A stretch of 64,000 bases of DNA from Escherichia coli (GTDB lineage: Bacteria > Pseudomonadota > Gammaproteobacteria > Enterobacterales > Enterobacteriaceae): the NCBI RefSeq assembly GCF_051903065.1, contig NZ_CP178438.1; one strand, written 5' to 3'. Made by a program: the position numbers and the translations under genes. The notes beneath the pieces were generated by a model. That model ran no database searches and was not told the DNA's origin. It saw nothing but the letters and a program-made list of their open reading frames with translations. Shown one piece after another: positions 53,295-64,000 of the stretch (its first letter is position 1; the number at the start of each line of letters is the position of its first letter).

Positions 53295-53350
53295 TGGTAC
53301 CCGGAGCGGGACTTGAACCCGCACAGCGCGAACGCCGAGGGATTTTAAAT
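53295..53350 (-). other. 3' fragment (56 nt) of tRNA-Leu(UAA), att-site remnant
   Basis: revcomp ATTTAAAATCCCTCGGCGTTCGCGCTGTGCGGGTTCAAGTCCCGCTCCGGGTACCA = 3' part of leuZ from anticodon loop to CCA; 5' half absent. Confidence 0.85.
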
Positions 53351-53529
53351 TCTACGCAGGATCAATGAGTTACATAGCAGTGCATTGCGAAACTTTGCTG
53401 TAATTGTTTACTCATTTTACTGTAATTGGCAGTAAATAGATAGACTTGGATAACTTTGAGCACAGAATCTGCACAGGTAAGTCCCCTCTCACGGAGGCCT
53501 ACCTGTGCTATATCTATATGACTGCAAAG

Positions 53530-54171
53530 TTACGAGTTTGACTGGAAATCTTCAATTATCTTCTGATTGTAATCATCCAGATACTTTTGCAGTTCATCCC
53601 TGTCGATCAGACGTACCAAGGCTGATTCAGCTAACTCTTTCGCAGAGCGAGTGAGTAGGAATTAGTCACAACCATCGCCTCATCACAACCATAGAATGTT
53701 TTAGCAGAGATCACCTGCTGCACCGCCGAGTTACCTACAGAACCAGAATAATTTTTCGCCTGAATAACCATATCCTTACCAAATCGAGTGACGAAGAGAT
53801 CTGCCCCCTGATCTTGCGTTCTCTTGGTTTCTTTGACGTCATAGCCCATAGTCTGGAATACTTCCACAAGGAAATCTTCAAACTGGAAACCGTCCATTGC
53901 ATCAACTAAATACATGGTGACGAATTTGTTAGGGTTAAAATGTTCGAGCCGTGTAGCTAATCTATCAACCAGAATATCAAAATAAATATGTTCGCACACA
54001 GCTAAGTATTTTTTAACTTCATCAAATGAAACTAAAGGAACACCAGGCGTAGCCTCCACTTTTTCATTGAACTCTACTGATGAGAACTCTATTTTATTGC
54101 TCCATATATAGAATAGAAACAATGAAAGATCTGCCCTAAAAGTGGTACCCGCTTCCTCAATCCATGACTTC
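53530..54171 (-). pseudogene. Mrr-like (PD-(D/E)xK) restriction endonuclease pseudogene: 5' truncated by IS1, frameshift near 3' end
   Basis: ORF 53631..54185 has Mrr_cat-like ...GADLFVTRFGKDMVIQAKNYSGSVGNSAVQQV...; its apparent TTG start lies inside the IS1 end; -1 frame past the stop reads AKELAESALVRLIDRDELQKYLDDYNQKIIEDFQSNS. Confidence 0.7.
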
Positions 54172-54226
54172 GGTGATGCTGCCAACTTACTGATTTAGTG
54201 TATGATGGTGTTTTTGAGGTGCTCCA

Positions 54227-54502
54227 GTGGCTTCTGTTTCTATCAGCTGTCCCTCCTGTTCAGCTACTGACGGGGTGGTGCGTAACGGCAAAAGCACCGC
54301 CGGACATCAGCGCTATCTCTGCTCTCACTGCCGTAAAACATGGCAACTGCAGTTCACTTACACCGCTTCTCAACCCGGTACGCACCAGAAAATCATTGAT
54401 ATGGCCATGAATGGCGTTGGATGCCGGGCAACAGCCCGCATTATGGGCGTTGGCCTCAACACGATTTTACGTCACTTAAAAAACTCAGGCCGCAGTCGGT
54501 AA
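54227..54502 (+). CDS. insA: IS1 InsA
   Basis: 91-aa [25 protein letters not shown]... Confidence 0.95.
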
Positions 54503-54924
54503 CCTCGCGCATACAGCCGGGCAGTGACGTCATCGTCTGCGCGGAAATGGACGAACAGTGGGGCTATGTCGGGGCTAAATCGCGCCAGCGCTGGCTGTTT
54601 TACGCGTATGACAGGCTCCGGAAGACGGTTGTTGCGCACGTATTCGGTGAACGCACTATGGCGACGCTGGGGCGTCTTATGAGCCTGCTGTCACCCTTTG
54701 ACGTGGTGATATGGATGACGGATGGCTGGCCGCTGTATGAATCCCGCCTGAAGGGAAAGCTGCACGTAATCAGCAAGCGATATACGCAGCGAATTGAGCG
54801 GCATAACCTGAATCTGAGGCAGCACCTGGCACGGCTGGGACGGAAGTCGCTGTCGTTCTCAAAATCGGTGGAGCTGCATGACAAAGTCATCGGGCATTAT
54901 CTGAACATAAAACACTATCAATAA
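54421..54924 (+). CDS. insB: IS1 InsB (expressed as InsAB' by -1 frameshift at A6C, 54476..54484)
   Basis: 167-aa [19 protein letters not shown]...; slippery TTAAAAAAC present. Confidence 0.93.
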
Positions 54925-55001
54925 GTTGGAGTCATTACCGCCGCTTCACGCAATATCATTTCAGGCTGGCCCGGGAGCTTAATATTCCTCCCCAGGCAAT
55001 C

Positions 55002-55364
55002 GTGTATGCCAATCTACTGGCGTGGGATTACGACGGACTGACCCCTCTCAATCGCCCTCAAAATGAAGTGCAGGAAGTTATATTAGCCTCGCTGAAGCTG
55101 CTGGCGGTACAAATTAAACACCTTGAGCCTGATTTCATCATCTTTGCATCTGGAGCCCGGAGAACAGACTACATCATAAAACAGGTGCTTACTGAGCTGG
55201 GCGGCTATGAGACTTCTGCAGTCATTCCGGGGAAGCTATGGGAGTTCAAAACAGGTAATGCAATCTGTTTCAGAATTGCCCATCCAAGGGCTATGCGCGG
55301 ACACAAGAAGTACAGAGATGAGGTGATTGCACGAATTAAGCAACTTTGTACTCAGGGTGGCTAG
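55002..55364 (+). CDS. hypothetical protein, possibly 5'-truncated gene remnant
   Basis: 120-aa ORF from GTG; frame stays open back to the IS1 junction (54942), so likely a C-terminal fragment. Confidence 0.4.
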   Translation: MYANLLAWDYDGLTPLNRPQNEVQEVILASLKLLAVQIKHLEPDFIIFASGARRTDYIIKQVLTELGGYETSAVIPGKLWEFKTGNAICFRIAHPRAMRGHKKYRDEVIARIKQLCTQGG

Positions 55365-55541
55365 AGCATTACAGTTTGCTCAGCAGGCCCCCCCTTCCCG
55401 GAAGAGTACCGGAAAACAGGCAAAGCGGCCTGGTTCTCTATGCTGGAGGCGACACGTTCAATTCGGCATTGCCAGGCTGTAGATTGCAGCTCATTGCACC
55501 CCGTGAGCACAGGATATGCACAGGGCGTGAATTGCATGCAC

Positions 55542-55567
55542 AAAAAAACCACCCGGAGGTGGTTTCA
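55542..55567 (-). terminator. rho-independent terminator, repeat copy 2
   Basis: A7 + ccaccc-gga-ggtgg hairpin, homologous to 53228..53250. Confidence 0.7.
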
Positions 55568-55606
55568 CGACACTGCTTATTGCTTTGATTATTCTGATGT
55601 TTCCCA

Positions 55607-55662
55607 TGGTACCCGGAGTGGGACTTGAACCCACACAGCGCGAACGCCGAGGGATTTTAAAT
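55607..55662 (-). other. second 3' fragment of tRNA-Leu(UAA), diverged
   Basis: same 56-nt fragment with two substitutions (gagTggg / cccAcac) that stay base-paired in the T-stem. Confidence 0.85.
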
Positions 55663-55938
55663 TCTACGTAGGATCAATGAGTTACATAGCAGTGCATTGC
55701 GAAACTTTGCTGACGTTGAATGGTCGTCTTTGCAACCACTGGCAGAAAATGGATAGCCGTAGATTGCGTTGAGCACAGAAACAGCACAGGGTAATCGTCT
55801 ACCTGGTCCTGTAAAGGAGGTTGTTGCCACACAAGCTAAAGCGCTTGACCTGCCCCCAGTATTCGGTACAACTGTCAGTTAGTAATGGACTGACCCCACC
55901 CCGGTAGACGATCCTGCCCTATAGTTACCTTTAACTAA

Positions 55939-58900
55939 TTATGCCAATTCAGACTCAAACGCTGCATCATTCGCTTCAGCCTCTGCGCCATCAATTAATG
56001 CCAAGACTCGGTCAAGAAAGCGTTGCGCTTCGTATACATCTGTTGCTTGCCGCAGATAATGAGGTATTCGTTCAACAAACTCGGAACGTGATAAAGGCTG
56101 ATGTTCCAGCAAAGCCTCAAGCATTGCGGGCCGCAACAAACGACGATCAGCATCAACATTAGGAAGCTCAACCTCAATGACATGTGTGGCAAAATACTTA
56201 AGTTGCTCCTTAAGCCCCAAATTGGGCATAAGAGAATCAATTGAGTCAGACGCCACTTCAGCGCTTGACTCAATCGTTTCTACATATTCATAGGAAGGTA
56301 CAACAACGTCTGGAGCCAATGTTTTAAGCTCATGGAGTTTACGGATAATCGGAGATAGAACCTCATCAGGATTACTGAACCAATCAGTGGACCAAATGCG
56401 GCTAATTCTCCAACCCAAACGCTCCAGAACCTCTTGACGCAAACGGTCACGATCACGAGCAGATTTAGCTGAGTGATAAGCCGCACCATCACACTCTATG
56501 CCCATTAAGTAACGGCCAGGACAACCTGGATCTTTCACAGCTAGATCAATAAAGAATCCTGCAACCCCTACCTGAGGTTCACACTCAAACCCAGCGTGAT
56601 TGAGTGCTTCCATTACAGCAACCTCAAAGTCACTATCTGGAGCCCTGCCGGTATGCGTTGTGAGGGAATCTAGTTTGCCACTTTCGGCAAACTGTAAAAA
56701 ACCTTTCAACGAAATAACACCAAGTTTACTGATTTCACTCGTCAATACATCTTCAGAACGCATTGAACTAAACACATGCATCCGTTTTTTTGATCGAGTG
56801 AAAAGCACATTCAAGCGACGCCAGCCAACATCGGAATTGATAGGTCCAAAGCGTTGATAAACCTTTCCACCATGCTCAGAAGGTCCATAGGTAAAGGAAA
56901 TAAAGATTACATCACGCTCATCCCCTTGAACGTTCTCAAGGTTTTTCACAAAAAGTGGCTCTTCCATGGCATATAAGCCATCGATTGCATCGTTAAATTC
57001 AGGGCGATTTCGGCGCAATTCATCGATAGCGCGCTCAATTTGATCGCGTTGCTTGGAACTCATGGCCACTACCCCGAGTGACTCACCCGGCCGGTGTTGC
57101 GCATGATGAAGTACGGCCTCAGCAACTGCTTGGGCTTCTTCAATATTGTGTTGATTGGAGAACCGACCTTTTGACACATAGGTAAATTTAATCCCATACT
57201 CTGGAGACTCAGCATTTGGGGAAGGGAATATCACCAAATCACTGTTATAAAAATGGCGGTTAGAGTATGCAATCAACTTTTCATGTCGTGAACGATAGTG
57301 CCAACGCAAACGTCTCATAGGAAACAGTGGCAAAGCAGCATCCAAAATGCTGTCAGTATCACTTAAAGCCGCGGCATCATCGTCATCTTCTCCGTCGGCA
57401 CTTCGATCAAAGAAACTGGTTGGTGGTAGCTGTTTCGGGTCACCAACGACCACTAGTTGCTTGCCCCTCGCGATGACACCCAATGCATCCTCTGGCTTCA
57501 CCTGAGACGCTTCGTCCATCACCACCAGATCAAATTCCATTCGTCCAGGTTCTAGGTAATGAGCTGCTGACATTGGCCCCATCATGAAACAAGGTTTAAT
57601 TGCAACCAGCGCATTACATGCACGGTTAACCAATTGCCTAATTGGAATATGTCTGGTTTTTTTACCCAACTCATTTTTGATCAAAGCTAGTTCTGTATAT
57701 TCACTTTTCTTACCACCAGAATTCCCTTCTGGTATATTTCGGCAAGCAATTTTTGCTGCAATCCGCTGACGTTGTAATTCAATCAGTTTTTTATCGTAAT
57801 CTTTAAATGACTTCTGCAAAGCATTGCGCTGTGAGCCGGAAACTCTCATCAATTCAGGGTGGATGTGAATAACCTCCCGCGCCAGCTGGTCATGAATTGC
57901 TAATGCTAAACCCAATTCAACTTTTTCAATCGGGAGCGAGCCCGCAAGTACAGCACTCCAGATTCGCTGCAATCCATTTTCATGCATCTGCTCGTAACAA
58001 CGAATAAAGTTAACCCACCCGTTCAACCAACGGGGTTGCTGTATTGCTCTTTCGTTGCGCTCGATTAATGTATTAAGAGAACCATCAGTCGACTTGAGCC
58101 ACTGACTCCGCTCTAACTTTGTTTCTAGCGCATATAACTCAGCATTTTTAATCTGTTCATTCCATTTCGAAACTATTTCCCCACCATCACGACATAGTAA
58201 ATCGTAATCACTACCACTAGCCAAATGTCTGATCTGGGTAGCCAAGGATACGCAATTTATCTTATCAACCAGTTGCTCGGCAAAATTCAGCGTGTCGTTA
58301 ATAGTGTCTAACGTCAGTTGATTATTTTTATACGCACCGCAAGCCAATGGGGTTAATTGTAAAAACGCCCCTAACTGTAACGAGTCATTTTCAAGGGATA
58401 TCTGAAGATCGTTTATGTTTTGCAAAATCTCGGAGGAATGAGTCATCTGCTCTAATGATATATCTGGATTGATAAACCATCCCTGCAAGGCAATGAGAGT
58501 ATTCCGCACCTGTCGGTAAGATTGCATCAATACACCTTGCTCACCTAACCAAGATGCATGTTCTTCCAACAAGCTAGAAATACGCGGTAATAACTTAGCC
58601 TCGTGCTCGACCCGTTTAACCAAAGTCATTAATCTTGAGCTAATCTGCGATTTCTCGATTAAATGCACACCTTTGATAATCTCACCATCTAGGTTAAATA
58701 ATCCAGAGCCTATCGCAACTCGCTTTCCAAAACCTATCCCGTAACAAGCTCGGACCTTCTTGTACCAATCACGCAATAACATGAGTTGTTCACAGTCGGT
58801 GTCCAACCCTCGGAATGCATTACCAAGTTGATTACCAAAGTCACTTTGTTCAAACCGTTGTAACAGCTCCGAATACTTGAGCAAATCAGCTGAGCAGCGT

Positions 58901-61686
58901 TTTAACTCAGCAAACTTAGTGTCAGGCTTACGAGATTGCGCCATGAGCAGTGCCTTGGCACTACGCCAATCACTCTTAAACCATGCAAATAATCCCCCTT
59001 GCTGGATAACAGCAACGGCATGCGCGAGCATCTCTTGGGAAGGCAACTGGTCCAATTGATACAAAGTAGATAGACCATCTCTTAAAGGACGCAATGTTTC
59101 GATTTGACACATTAAGTCGCGCAATACTGCATCGATATCATCATCATCAAAAAGAGGATCTCGAACTCTAATAAGCTCAGTCGGTAAAGCACCCAGAATC
59201 GACAACAACTCAGAGCAGAATAGCAATCCAGCTTGCGAATCATCGATATACGAAGCAATACCATCTGGCAAAGCATTTTTGAAATCGTTTAATTGCGCAT
59301 AAATAGATGATAACTCATCATGAATTGATTGGATGGATTCAAGCCACCTGACCAAATCACGTAAAGTGAAATCCTCTGCTGCACCATATTTTTCCAGCTC
59401 TTCACGAGGAAAGTCACACGATTGTCCTTGTTCTAAAAGTCGTAGCTTTTGAGGCTCGATAACCTGGCTCAAGGCCACATAATGACCTTGTAGCAACTCG
59501 AACCTATCTAAATAGTGACGCACCCGTGCAATGGCATCGGGTGAATCTAGCTCACTAAGTGCTGGGAAATGCTCTGAACCACACAACACTGGAAGATTCG
59601 ACTGATCTTCTACCAATTGCTCAATATATTGAAGCGTATTAAGGCTTTCGCCTTCTAACGCCCACTTATCTACATATTCTTGATAGCTATGTTGAAAGTC
59701 GATAATTGATGTCTGCCAAGTTTGTAGCAAATCGACTATACGAGCGCTGTCAAACAATTGAATTTGTGTGTTATTCACACCGCTCCAAGGGTGCTCATAT
59801 ATTTCTGCATTAGCCCCCACCTGCTCACGAACCTCTTTGTAGATGCGGCTAAACTCTACTATTTGGTCACGCAGCCGTAATTGGGTCACTTTATCCAACT
59901 GCTTCCCGGAAAGGTTTTCGATATGAAGTGCTGTTGCATCAATATCTAATTTGTGACGATAACGGGTTGCACCACTCAAAATCTGATGGATCGTTTTGCC
60001 TGTTTGCGCCCATTGGTTATTGATCAATGCGGCATATTCATTGAGCTGCTGCTTAAGATCTTCATAACGCAAAATCTGAGCATCAATCTCTTCCATAGTA
60101 GGCATGGTCGCCTGACTCACCAAGCGAGCATTAATATCATCCAGCACCTTGCGCTTATGAGTTTTATGACTGTGCAACTCTAAGCAAAATTGACCTAGCC
60201 CCGCACGATCCAAGCGACGTTTGACGACCTCCAGTGCAGCCATCTTCTCTGCCACAAACAGGACTTTCTTACCGTTGAGCAGAGCTGCTGCAATCAAGTT
60301 GGTGATCGTTTGTGATTTGCCACTACCAGGAGGGCCCTCAATGACTAAGTTTTGACCACGGATAGCATCGATCAACGCACTGTGCTGCGAGCTATCCGCA
60401 TCATCGATTAGTGGAACCTTGTCATGAATATCAGGGTAACTATCGATGCAGTACTCATGCTGACCGAAGCCACCAGGTAAGCCGGAATTCTCTTGACCAC
60501 AGCTCTGACTGGTGAAAAAGCGACGAATTACTTCATGAGACAATATATTGCGCTTGTCACAAGGCCAGCGGGCAGGATCGAGGTCAAGATACATCATCAT
60601 CTTGCCAAAATTGAGCAAGCTAAGTGCACCATAACGTTTCACAGACCATTTAGGTTTGTGCTGCTCTACAACCTTCTTCACCGAAGCAAAATAAGACTCT
60701 GGAGTTTCCTCTTCATTGAACAAAGGAAGAGCGAGGCCAAAGTCAGCCTGAAGTTTTTCCTTCAAAGAGAGATTGGGCAAAATATCTTCACCCGTGTAAT
60801 AAAGTTGAAACTTGTAAAGACCATCCTTCGGATCTAATTTTCCTCGTTCACATCTCACCGGAATTGTAAATAACGGTGCATAACGTGCCTTTTCAGAGGA
60901 ATCGCTTTCATACCACTCAAGGAACCCTAACGCCAAATACAAGATGTTGGCGCCACTCTCCTCCAAAGCAGTTTGAGCCTTACCATAGATGGCGCGCAAA
61001 CAAGCTTCCAGTTCATTTGGATAAAGCAGAGCCTGTATCCGATTATCGTCATGAGAGGGATTGGAAGAAGATATACTAATCTCATTCCCAGCCTTTGCCT
61101 GTCGTTCAAAATCCTCAAGCCCTTCATAGCCTGCTAAGCAGCACGCCTCCTTCAACGCTGACAAAGCTATACCTTGATTAACGTATTCAGAACGAATCCC
61201 TGTTAATTTTCCATTCTGGCCTTGGGCATATTGCAAGATAAACTGATGGGCTTTTTCCAGCAACTCTCTATCTGAATCAGAAACAACCGTTTTATGGCTA
61301 TCTGGTAAATCAAAATCTGTACGGATTCCTAAGACGTGCGCCCAATCCTTAGCGCTAGGATGAGCTCTTAACTGTATATCTTTACCATCTGGCCCAACTT
61401 TGAGATAGCCATGCTCTAACAGCTGCGCTCTAGTTGGATCGGGCACAGGAGCAAATTCCATCGGGATTTCCGAGCAAAGGGTTTCATAAAGCTGTTCTGG
61501 TAATTCATCAACAATACGTAGTGAAGACCCTTTTTGAGTGATAGGGAAATTCAAAAGTCGATTTCGAGACGTAAGGTCCAATAACTTCTTACGCATAGCC
61601 TCGAGGGAAGTCAGAATAAAATCTGAGCCTCCTTGATTGAGTTCCTCTGCTGTAGAGGTATCTACAGTCGACATAATGTTCTCCAT
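55939..61686 (-). CDS. giant helicase-nuclease (1915 aa): DUF4011-like N-terminus, Upf1-like SF1 helicase with ~940-aa insertion, C-terminal Vsr/DUF559-like nuclease domain
   Basis: LLDLTSRNRLLNF and LALGFLEWYE near N-terminus; Walker A GPPGSGKS (res 451-458, nt 60313..60336); DEAS (res 1391-1394, nt 57505..57516); VVVGDPKQLPP; GDERDVIFIS; GWRRLNVLFTRSKKRMHVF; C-terminal FFIDLA...IECDGAAYHSAKSARDRDRLRQEVLERLGWRISRIW (nt about 56377..56628). Confidence 0.85.
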   Translation of the reverse strand: MENIMSTVDTSTAEELNQGGSDFILTSLEAMRKKLLDLTSRNRLLNFPITQKGSSLRIVDELPEQLYETLCSEIPMEFAPVPDPTRAQLLEHGYLKVGPDGKDIQLRAHPSAKDWAHVLGIRTDFDLPDSHKTVVSDSDRELLEKAHQFILQYAQGQNGKLTGIRSEYVNQGIALSALKEACCLAGYEGLEDFERQAKAGNEISISSSNPSHDDNRIQALLYPNELEACLRAIYGKAQTALEESGANILYLALGFLEWYESDSSEKARYAPLFTIPVRCERGKLDPKDGLYKFQLYYTGEDILPNLSLKEKLQADFGLALPLFNEEETPESYFASVKKVVEQHKPKWSVKRYGALSLLNFGKMMMYLDLDPARWPCDKRNILSHEVIRRFFTSQSCGQENSGLPGGFGQHEYCIDSYPDIHDKVPLIDDADSSQHSALIDAIRGQNLVIEGPPGSGKSQTITNLIAAALLNGKKVLFVAEKMAALEVVKRRLDRAGLGQFCLELHSHKTHKRKVLDDINARLVSQATMPTMEEIDAQILRYEDLKQQLNEYAALINNQWAQTGKTIHQILSGATRYRHKLDIDATALHIENLSGKQLDKVTQLRLRDQIVEFSRIYKEVREQVGANAEIYEHPWSGVNNTQIQLFDSARIVDLLQTWQTSIIDFQHSYQEYVDKWALEGESLNTLQYIEQLVEDQSNLPVLCGSEHFPALSELDSPDAIARVRHYLDRFELLQGHYVALSQVIEPQKLRLLEQGQSCDFPREELEKYGAAEDFTLRDLVRWLESIQSIHDELSSIYAQLNDFKNALPDGIASYIDDSQAGLLFCSELLSILGALPTELIRVRDPLFDDDDIDAVLRDLMCQIETLRPLRDGLSTLYQLDQLPSQEMLAHAVAVIQQGGLFAWFKSDWRSAKALLMAQSRKPDTKFAELKRCSADLLKYSELLQRFEQSDFGNQLGNAFRGLDTDCEQLMLLRDWYKKVRACYGIGFGKRVAIGSGLFNLDGEIIKGVHLIEKSQISSRLMTLVKRVEHEAKLLPRISSLLEEHASWLGEQGVLMQSYRQVRNTLIALQGWFINPDISLEQMTHSSEILQNINDLQISLENDSLQLGAFLQLTPLACGAYKNNQLTLDTINDTLNFAEQLVDKINCVSLATQIRHLASGSDYDLLCRDGGEIVSKWNEQIKNAELYALETKLERSQWLKSTDGSLNTLIERNERAIQQPRWLNGWVNFIRCYEQMHENGLQRIWSAVLAGSLPIEKVELGLALAIHDQLAREVIHIHPELMRVSGSQRNALQKSFKDYDKKLIELQRQRIAAKIACRNIPEGNSGGKKSEYTELALIKNELGKKTRHIPIRQLVNRACNALVAIKPCFMMGPMSAAHYLEPGRMEFDLVVMDEASQVKPEDALGVIARGKQLVVVGDPKQLPPTSFFDRSADGEDDDDAAALSDTDSILDAALPLFPMRRLRWHYRSRHEKLIAYSNRHFYNSDLVIFPSPNAESPEYGIKFTYVSKGRFSNQHNIEEAQAVAEAVLHHAQHRPGESLGVVAMSSKQRDQIERAIDELRRNRPEFNDAIDGLYAMEEPLFVKNLENVQGDERDVIFISFTYGPSEHGGKVYQRFGPINSDVGWRRLNVLFTRSKKRMHVFSSMRSEDVLTSEISKLGVISLKGFLQFAESGKLDSLTTHTGRAPDSDFEVAVMEALNHAGFECEPQVGVAGFFIDLAVKDPGCPGRYLMGIECDGAAYHSAKSARDRDRLRQEVLERLGWRISRIWSTDWFSNPDEVLSPIIRKLHELKTLAPDVVVPSYEYVETIESSAEVASDSIDSLMPNLGLKEQLKYFATHVIEVELPNVDADRRLLRPAMLEALLEHQPLSRSEFVERIPHYLRQATDVYEAQRFLDRVLALIDGAEAEANDAAFESELA

Positions 61687-61860
61687 TTCTTAGGGTCCAC
61701 AAGTAAAACGTTTTATGCTGATGCATCACAAAAAGACCGCAGTAAACTGCTGCAAAGAAGAGGAGATTTTTAGTCTCCCCTTCTTTATCAATCAGATCAT
61801 ACAATCAACTTAACGCCCATTAGTTGATAGCAGCCAAATTTCATAAACAGATTCAATCCG

Positions 61861-63903
61861 TTATTGCTGAATTTGATTGGATAGTAAGACCTGCAACATA
61901 TCTTGTTGATGCACAGCTATCTCATCTTCCAGCCAACGACCTTTATCTTTCATCAGCCGAATCATAGCAAGCAATTTAAGACTATCAGTCTGGTTATTGG
62001 CAAGGCTTGCTTCAAAGTGCTCCTGCTTCTGTTGCGGCTGGAAGTTACTCAAGCGCGAGTTCTTGCTGTGGCTGATAAGGCAAAGGTTGCCAAACGAATG
62101 GAGTGCACTCTGCTCAACCGGTTTATAGCCATCCATCGGATGCTGGGGTGAGAAGTGCTCCACCGAGCTGCGGAAAGTGAACTCAAAGGAGCCAGCAACT
62201 TTGTCGCTATTCCGATCTCGTACCCACAGCAGATAGTCGAGGAAGTTGAAGACAAAGTTGTTCTCGATATGACCGAAGCGAAGTTTGGATGTAATCACCT
62301 TGTGCCAACTCTCATCCACATTGATGGCGGGCAACAGGGCGTTATCAAGGTAGAGCATCTGGTAATAGGAAGCCCCTTCACCAGGCGCCAAAAAGCGCTG
62401 GAAGACAAAGCGGCGAGCCTGACTCTCCAGATAGGACAGATAAGCCCCGGCATCCACCGGTTGATCAGGGTGACAATTGTCGAACAGATATCTCAGTGCA
62501 CCATTCAGCCAATGTTTGTAAACCAGGGTCGGGGTCGACACATGAAACGCCGACAGCAACATCAGGACCCGCCGGTTAACACCAGAGAAACCATTCTCAT
62601 TTTCATCCTTGTCAAAGGTATTGATGTAACTGACGCTCTTTTCCGAATACCAGTGCAGCCGCTTCAGACTCCAACTATCCTTGCCATCGGCAAACTCGCG
62701 CTTGATGATGAACTGATCAAACAGATACTTGCTCTTTAACAGGCCATAGATAAAACGCTGAACTGCCGCTACTGGATCCGGTTGCCTTATCACTCGCAGC
62801 TCAAACTGATCGACCAGTTGTTTATCATCAAGCGGCACCCCCTCCGTATCACCCGGGTCGCGGCTCACGAGTCGCAGCACATGGAGCAAGAAGTTGGAGA
62901 AGTTGATGACGCTGTTAAAGCGCTCGGAGCCTGCGCTCTCCTCCTCCACCGTCTGCTCACCATCAAGCTTGTCATCCTGCAAAATGGCCAACAAGGTGCG
63001 CCCTTGGCTACCGGCAGCTGCACGGCTTTTATCGGCAGCGTCGGCCGTGTTTGGGGATCCTAGCAGATCAAGCAGATGGGCAAAGTCACGGGGCACAAAC
63101 TGACCCCAGTCGCTCTCACCAAACAGACGGTGGCGCTCTTGCGGGGTAAAGCCGTACTGGATATAGCGCTCCATATTGGCGCAGGCATCCCATACCCGGG
63201 TCAGGATATGAATACTTTGGCGACGATGCTCTTCCTCGGGTATCTGGTTCAGCGTCTCCATCAGCCGCGCCTTGATCACTTCATGCTTTTCCAACTGCTC
63301 GCCGCGATTGTTCATCGCCTCGAAGAAGTGATTGAGATCGGTATCCTTGGGTACTTCGATACGAGAGATCTGCACATGCTTGAAGAGGTAGTCGCAAAAG
63401 GTCGTCAGTTTAGCCCCTACCAAACCAAGATCCGCCATTGCCTTGCCAATCAGCTCAAAACCGTTCACCAAACCTTCATTGAAGGTACTCCCCCGCAAAT
63501 CGTAGGGGGCAACACCCTGCCATAAGCGCTCGAAGGTATGGCTCGATATCGGGCGACTCTCAAAAGCGAGGTTGATGGTCTGATACCAGCTCATATCCAC
63601 CGAATCTATCGCGTGATGTTTGAGCCAATTGGCCAGCAGAGAGAGGGTAGTAAAGCGCTGCTGGCCATCGATTACCTCGAAACTGCCATCGTCCCGGGCA
63701 AACACCACCAGGGTGCCGATATAGTAGGTTTGCGGCCCCTTACCACTGACCAATTTTTGCTGATAATCCAGCACATCCTGCAGCAGCTGGGTGATCTCTC
63801 CCTCACCCCAGGCATAGTTGCGCTGGTACATGGGCACCAGATAGCGGGCGCGATCTTCAAGCAGTGCACGAATGGAAAAGGGGCGAACGCCTGCATCATT
63901 CAT
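61861..63903 (-). CDS. DUF262 (ParB-like NTPase/nuclease) + DUF1524 (His-Me finger) protein, GmrSD-like putative type IV restriction enzyme
   Basis: N-terminal [16 protein letters not shown] and [12 protein letters not shown] (res 79-83); C-terminal [12 protein letters not shown]...[18 protein letters not shown]. Confidence 0.85.
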
Positions 63904-64000
63904 AATATTTCATCTCCCGAAACAGCCCGACCAGCTCATCTTCGGCACCATTGCGATTGTTCTTGTTCTCTCGACTGCTCATGCTAGGCAAAGGGAAGCC
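63896..64000 (-). CDS. 3' end of an upstream ORF running off the window (partial)
   Basis: minus-strand frame open from 64000 to TGA at 63898..63896 (...[28 protein letters not shown]); ATGAATGA overlap with the DUF262 start. Confidence 0.4.

Follow-up and report, generated by a model that had tools for sequence, protein, structure and literature searches.

The minus-strand sequence at positions 53530-54171 of the window, by which we mean the whole 64-kb stretch of Escherichia coli DNA that was analysed, is almost certainly a non-functional pseudogene, namely the 3' 54% of a gene for a 393-aa stand-alone nuclease that was left over from an older island at the tRNA gene leuZ. The match of this remnant to the intact gene goes far beyond chance, and nothing that we found contradicts its pseudogene status. 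The truncation point, the missing target duplication next to IS1, the frameshift, the homology, the tandem leuZ repeats and the intact arrangement in other strains were all observed directly. The stump is an ordinary relic, neither a working system nor a new one, and it is already annotated in sister genomes: RefSeq calls it a pseudogene ("incomplete; missing N-terminus") in strains 23CRST027, 23CRST031 and ECNB21-M121.

A 3' remnant of a nuclease gene

The remnant corresponds to nt 540-1182 of a 1182-nt gene annotated as "restriction endonuclease", and to residues 181-393 of a protein that combines a zinc ribbon, a helical domain and an Mrr_cat domain. As the intact reference we used the allele of strain HH194M (WP_032176356.1, 1182 nt, 393 aa), which lies directly beside yecA; when the remnant was aligned with this gene (L003:5058-6239), 640 of 643 positions were identical (99.5%), with one gap. 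Strain 214-4 has an allele of 392 aa, and the RefSeq proteins for the same gene at the yecA-leuZ island are WP_032176356.1 and WP_000640254.1 (393 and 392 aa, respectively). By this alignment, the window copy lacks the first 539 nt (179 2/3 codons), so that its promoter is gone together with the start codon and 180 residues, and it carries a 1-nt deletion that creates a TAG stop codon. Position 53530 closes the natural stop codon (TAA, 53532-53530), while position 54171 is the first base outside a copy of IS1. The ORF that can still be read runs from 54185 to 53631 on the minus strand, with a TTG start and 184 aa. Both the ORF list and the three-frame translation agree exactly with the coordinates and the ORF description of the first-pass annotation.

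That annotation had also recognised a core resembling the Mrr catalytic domain, which the profile search that it proposed bore out. As it stands, the ORF matches Mrr_cat (PF04471) over profile positions 2-88 of 115 with E=3e-21 and 76.1 bits, the Pfam gathering cut-off being 21 bits. The peptide of the downstream frame gives on its own a weak match to profile positions 90-114 (E=0.14), and once the sequence is repaired by one base the match extends over positions 2-114 (E=1.8e-30, 105.9 bits); the intact orthologue reaches 103.9 bits (E=7e-30) over residues 270-377 of 393. The window copy has no complete Mrr_cat domain in one frame, because profile positions 90-114 lie in a different frame after the deletion. 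Enzymes of the Mrr/MspJI type carry the catalytic motif D ... (Q/E)xK with an upstream acidic residue, and the residues E278, D304 (GAD304) and Q317-A318-K319 (VIQAK) are present in the remnant and invariant in an alignment of 45 homologues.

Among 5426 complete E. coli genomes, 243 carry the gene, and 220 of these 243 have at least 80% of it. The truncation points among the records listed fall at nt 265, 418, 442, 540, 858 and 1078. At the same locus in other strains, the intact gene is the last gene of an island that contains type I restriction-modification (R-M), M48, DUF262 and PD-(D/E)XK genes on a pipolin backbone. In HH194M specifically, the intact nuclease gene comes after a HEC-06-like DUF262 gene and a PDC-S26-like PD-(D/E)XK gene.

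A single-base deletion in the remnant

From the sequence it had been proposed that the natural C-terminus continues in another frame past the stop codon, implying a 1-nt indel. This is what three-frame translation gave: the extant ORF ends in ...VVTNSYSLALRKS and is followed in the other frame by TRSAKELAESALVRLIDRDELQKYLDDYNQKIIEDFQSNS, which stops at the natural TAA. Alignment to the intact gene placed the lesion at 53654-53655 on the minus strand, where one T has been lost from codon F353 (TAC-TTC to TAC-TC), this being the sole alignment gap. The premature TAG at 53631-53633 (minus strand) is a product of the frameshift and leaves the ORF ending in ...NSYSLALRKS, and restoring the deleted base recovers the C-terminus of the homologues. 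The family does not end where this ORF ends: homologues from Enterobacterales, Pseudomonas and Burkholderiales are ~390 aa long and share the C-terminus encoded in the downstream frame, and none of the 405 homologues found (the best 120 of which were listed) naturally starts near residue 181 or ends in ...SLALRKS. According to the alignment and an AlphaFold model, the frameshift takes out the invariant residues T354, A357 and E359 together with the last strand and helix of the fold.

When the region 53380-54171 was compared by megablast with the 5426 complete E. coli genomes, a match was obtained in 320 of them, and every full-length match had 793 bases for the 792-base query. None of the 243 E. 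coli genomes with the gene has the deletion in codon F353, and these include two sister genomes that are otherwise identical. Within the gene, the deletion is the only difference from the sister genome 23CRST027, and over 30.9 kb the window and that genome differ by 0 substitutions and two indels of one base, namely this deletion (at 53654) and a C7 versus C6 at 55388, both of them derived in the window. The C7 homopolymer occupies 55382-55388, in intergenic DNA of the relic, and both 23CRST027 and 2022CK-00450 have C6 at this place.

The missing base could also be a sequencing or assembly error, in which case the stump would otherwise be in frame, as in the sister genomes, and still be truncated at its 5' end by IS1. 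Differences that consist of indels only, with no substitution in 30.9 kb, are typical of long-read assembly errors; moreover, the second indel affects a homopolymer and the deletion is present in no other genome of the collection. However, the run from which the base is missing has just 2 bases (AA/TT) and is no long homopolymer, and both indels fall inside the 2.4-kb relic, which has a chance of ~0.006 if errors are spread evenly over the 30.9 kb. Indels confined to the relic are the pattern that real indels, tolerated only in DNA under no selection, would show, and we regard an error as unlikely. The gene is dead whether the frameshift is real or an artefact, and the functional consequence is nil either way.

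Expression of the stump

A second alternative is that the stump still gives rise to a protein that starts at the TTG within the end of IS1, through read-through or an outward IS1 promoter, and that this protein is a free Mrr-type nuclease domain with a residual or new function. The uninterrupted 184-codon ORF does keep E278, D304 and Q317-x-K319, and the same junction between IS1 and the stump persists in several strains. Against this, the promoter scan of the minus strand detected no sigma-70-like promoter upstream of the stump, the TTG is not preceded by a Shine-Dalgarno sequence and the first 5 codons come from IS1. The product would lack the three invariant residues and the terminal strand and helix removed by the frameshift, as well as the highly conserved N-terminal 180 residues. 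Finally, the sister strains do not have the frameshift, so that no single product is conserved across the two forms. It is therefore very unlikely that a functional product is made from the stump.

IS1 marks a deletion joint

The element next to the pseudogene is a complete IS1 of the IS1A type (768 bp, 54172-54939, plus strand), recognised by its sequence and by its insA (54227-54502) and insB' (54421-54924) ORFs, and it is identical at 770 of 770 positions to the annotated IS1A of strain 2022CK-00450. Its terminal repeat, GGTGATGCTGCCAACTTACTGAT, begins at 54172 and directly abuts the nuclease stump. Because the repeat starts there, the TTG at 54185-54183 is IS1 sequence, as the first-pass annotation had noticed.

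On its other side IS1 adjoins a second remnant, the 3' part of a gene for a 246-aa hypothetical protein (54940-55365, plus strand), whose 5' 316 nt were lost at that end of the element. The intact 246-aa gene is found in other strains between the island integrase and leuZ, and its stump is annotated in a sister strain as a pseudogene lacking the N-terminus; the stretch 54940-55662 matches L007:11349-12070 at 99.9%. No target-site duplication of 8-9 bp surrounds IS1, the 9-bp flanks being different (tgaagcggc versus gaagtcatg, minus strand). With no target duplication and with flanks that come from different genes, IS1 marks a deletion joint and not a simple insertion. The proposal that the 5' end had been removed in association with IS1 is thus well founded, with 539 nt gone and a different truncated gene on the opposite flank. 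We rejected, as having practically no probability, a simple IS1 insertion that split a complete gene and left its 5' half beyond the element: IS1 is indeed complete and lies exactly at the break, but there is no 9-bp duplication, the other flank (54940-55365) belongs to an unrelated plus-strand gene next to leuZ, and the sister-strain annotation contains no 5' half in 55400-64000 of the window or in the island beyond.

The same junction between nt 540 and IS1 occurs in ECNB21-M121 and 23CRST027, and the match in 23CRST031 also starts at nt 540. In ECNB21-M121 (L001:6793-6830), IS903B has since cut or replaced IS1, leaving 37 nt of it. Other strains (L002 and L007) have IS1 directly against the gene at nt 365 and nt 418, with its orientation unchanged. 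These junctions at several positions of the gene suggest stepwise IS1 adjacent deletions into it.

Two islands at the leuZ hotspot

The relic island consists of the two gene stumps joined by IS1, and it lies between two 56-nt copies of the leuZ 3' end, which we identified by comparison with intact leuZ and which belong to the direct-repeat family D1/D3 (D1 for copy 2). Copy 1 (53295-53350, minus strand) is the displaced original end of the tRNA gene and forms the distal boundary of the relic, beside yecA. Copy 2 (55607-55662, minus strand) is an exact match to the 3' end of the present leuZ and forms the boundary between the relic and a newer island. As copy 2 has the current leuZ sequence, the functional leuZ now carries an island-derived 3' end. 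ARAGORN found no complete tRNA in the 64-kb window.

Two further features of this DNA were noted. Between the leuZ copies, the T-stem shows a compensatory pair of differences, with GTGCGGG...CCCGC in copy 1 and GTGTGGG...CCCAC in both copy 2 and the current leuZ. In addition, a family of 51-nt direct repeats is present at 53427-53477, 55474-55524 and 55740-55790, a short way in from the island ends and close to the leuZ fragments; the second and third are 80% and 63% identical to the first copy, and the family may represent conserved att-flanking or integrase-arm sequence, although the 63% copy may be due to chance.

Upstream of copy 2, the window contains the distal cargo of the newer, pipolin-type island: an intact Hhe gene (55939-61686, minus strand, 1915 aa), annotated in the sister strain as a DUF4011 anti-phage protein, and after it a GmrSD-like DUF262 gene (61861-63903, minus strand, 680 aa). 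From there the newer island runs off the end of the window. In the sister strain, the island can be followed from Hhe to leuZ. Hhe is succeeded by two DUF262 genes, IS fragments and an M48 peptidase gene, and then by the type I R-M genes, in which hsdR, a YecA/YgfB-family gene, hsdS and hsdM follow one another. A tyrosine recombinase, the type-B DNA polymerase piPolB, DUF726, DUF2787, a site-specific integrase and the 246-aa gene come next, ending at intact leuZ-cysT-glyW and pgsA. This gene order is that of the enterobacterial pipolin backbone. E. coli pipolins occupy a tRNA-Leu gene that lies between pgsA and yecA, their core being close to the tRNA and their exchangeable defence cargo in the distal part, where type I R-M, PDC-S26, HEC-06, mza and hhe are among the systems named (PMC11551731); three att repeats have been reported in some E. 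coli pipolins (bioRxiv 10.1101/2020.04.24.059261).

The type I R-M operons of HH194M (L014:23634-25481) and 23CRST027 (L005) both have a YecA/YgfB-family gene between hsdS and hsdR, and in both strains an M48/YgjP-like metallopeptidase gene follows hsdR. The operon of HH194M additionally includes a gene for a 615-aa cold-shock-domain protein.

The older island resembles pipolins in its integration at the tRNA-Leu gene leuZ and in its flanking att repeats. piPolB is not found within the repeats of the relic; the newer island of the sister strain has it, and in HH194M it is likewise absent, next to IS903B. Since the relic has no piPolB, the name pipolin rests, for the older island, on comparison with other strains. 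The earlier suggestion that the stump is what remains of a former defence gene at this hotspot fits these data well, since in other strains the intact gene is the terminal cargo of an island that occupies precisely this site, a second and complete island is present in the window upstream of the relic, and the site is a published hotspot for pipolins and defence genes (PMC11551731). Of that suggestion, the relic and the hotspot hold; for the word "defence", the domain and the context of the intact protein point to a putative role as a restriction or anti-phage nuclease.

Proposed history

We infer the order of events and the mechanism of the deletion as follows. At first, a pipolin-type island would have been integrated between pgsA and yecA, in the 3' end of the tRNA-Leu gene leuZ, with the nuclease gene as its outermost cargo. 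An IS1-associated deletion, produced either by IS1 itself as an adjacent deletion or by recombination between two copies of the element, would then have extended from codon 180 of the nuclease gene to a point midway in the small gene beside leuZ, removing the integrase, the island core and the remaining cargo together with the promoter, the start codon and the N-terminal 180 residues of the nuclease. Before or after this deletion, a second island of the same kind, with piPolB (in the sister strain), type I R-M, two DUF262 genes and Hhe, would have been acquired at leuZ, and its integration would have left the relic sandwiched between the two 56-nt leuZ 3' copies. As the last step, and in this strain only, the dead stump would have lost one T in codon F353.

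The relic is thus a marker that the pgsA/leuZ/yecA hotspot has been occupied twice in this strain, and it offers a clean, datable case of defence-island turnover, with tandem accretion followed by IS-associated erosion. Such a process has already been described for pipolins and other islands. The discovery value is very small: the pseudogene had been read correctly, and sister genomes already carry the annotation of this stump.

The ancestral protein family

In the ancestral 393-aa protein, a CxxC...CxxC motif at the N-terminus is followed by a conserved helical region and then by the C-terminal Mrr-type PD-(D/E)XK domain with D...QxK. Our searches found 405 homologues at E<=1e-5, and among the best 120 of these 405, nearly all are full length (~390 aa) and 59-97% identical to the E. 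coli protein; the sources of these 120 are Enterobacterales, Pseudomonas, Paraburkholderia and Allopusillimonas. In the alignment of 45 homologues, C5, C8, C17 and many residues of the helical middle are invariant and C20 is almost invariant, and the N-terminal 180 residues, missing in the remnant, are highly conserved. The CxxC...CxxC motif and the helical region (within residues 1-260) show 60-97% conservation between E. coli, Pseudomonas and Paraburkholderia.

No Pfam family, not even Mrr_N, matched within residues 1-260 of the intact orthologue at E<=0.1; NCBIfam has no family for the intact protein, and a sequence search of the PDB with it returned nothing. The AlphaFold model has a mean pLDDT of 74, being confident from about residue 160 and mostly low in the N-terminal 130 residues. 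With this model, Foldseek matched only the C-terminal nuclease domain (to EndoMS, MspJI, AF1548 and AspBHI) and found no structural match in the PDB for the N-terminal or helical region. No conserved gene neighbours were seen in Pseudomonas, Paraburkholderia or Klebsiella, where the neighbours are mutually unrelated, indicating that the gene behaves as solitary cargo at the edges of mobile elements; for the same reason, we dropped the idea of a multi-gene system.

The intact protein is predicted to act in an Mrr/MspJI-like manner at the level of its catalytic domain; its gene is not an orthologue of mrr. The label "Mrr-like" given to the remnant in the first-pass annotation consequently applies to the catalytic domain and not to the ancestral N-terminus, which is not that of Mrr. 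We tentatively suggest, judging from the domains and the gene's surroundings, that the intact family might represent a restriction or anti-phage nuclease that is so far uncharacterised, acts as a single gene and has a new sensing domain, a possibility that we regard as somewhat less likely than not. If this were true, the repeated truncation of the gene in E. coli, often beside IS1, would reflect a cost of carriage. Any novelty would lie in the gene family and not in the stump, nothing in the window itself being functional or new.

Comparison with known systems

The proteins that RefSeq annotates as "restriction endonuclease" (WP_032176356.1 and WP_000640254.1) are products of the same gene, from which the window copy differs additionally by the one T missing in F353. 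The likeness to Mrr of E. coli K-12, a type IV modification-dependent enzyme, and to PF04471 lies in the C-terminal PD-(D/E)XK domain with its D...QxK site. In contrast, the Mrr_N winged helix at the N-terminus of E. coli Mrr is not in the intact orthologue, which has the CxxC...CxxC motif and the helical region instead, and the window copy is deleted to residue 180.

In PADLOC, the C-terminal 120 residues of the intact protein align with ZorD (its nuclease domain), PDC-S02 and mREase_IV with E values of 2e-21 to 1e-7. These are matches at the domain level, covering profile positions 935-1065 of 1071 and 185-313 of 334. The intact protein has no helicase domain and is a full-length member of none of the three, nor did it give a full-length match to any other defined PADLOC defence-system protein. 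The literature searched on leuZ defence islands and on PDC-S02 held nothing specific, and the "Mrr" matches in a search on pipolins and Mrr were an author's initials.

In arrangement, there is a parallel with the enterobacterial pipolins, which have the same integration site, att repeats overlapping leuZ, three att copies and variable defence cargo in the distal part. Unlike pipolins, the relic itself has neither piPolB nor an integrase and consists of two gene stumps and IS1. The strains with an intact nuclease gene share with pipolins a backbone of integrases, DUF2787, type I R-M, a HEC-06-like DUF262 gene and a PDC-S26-like PD-(D/E)XK gene.
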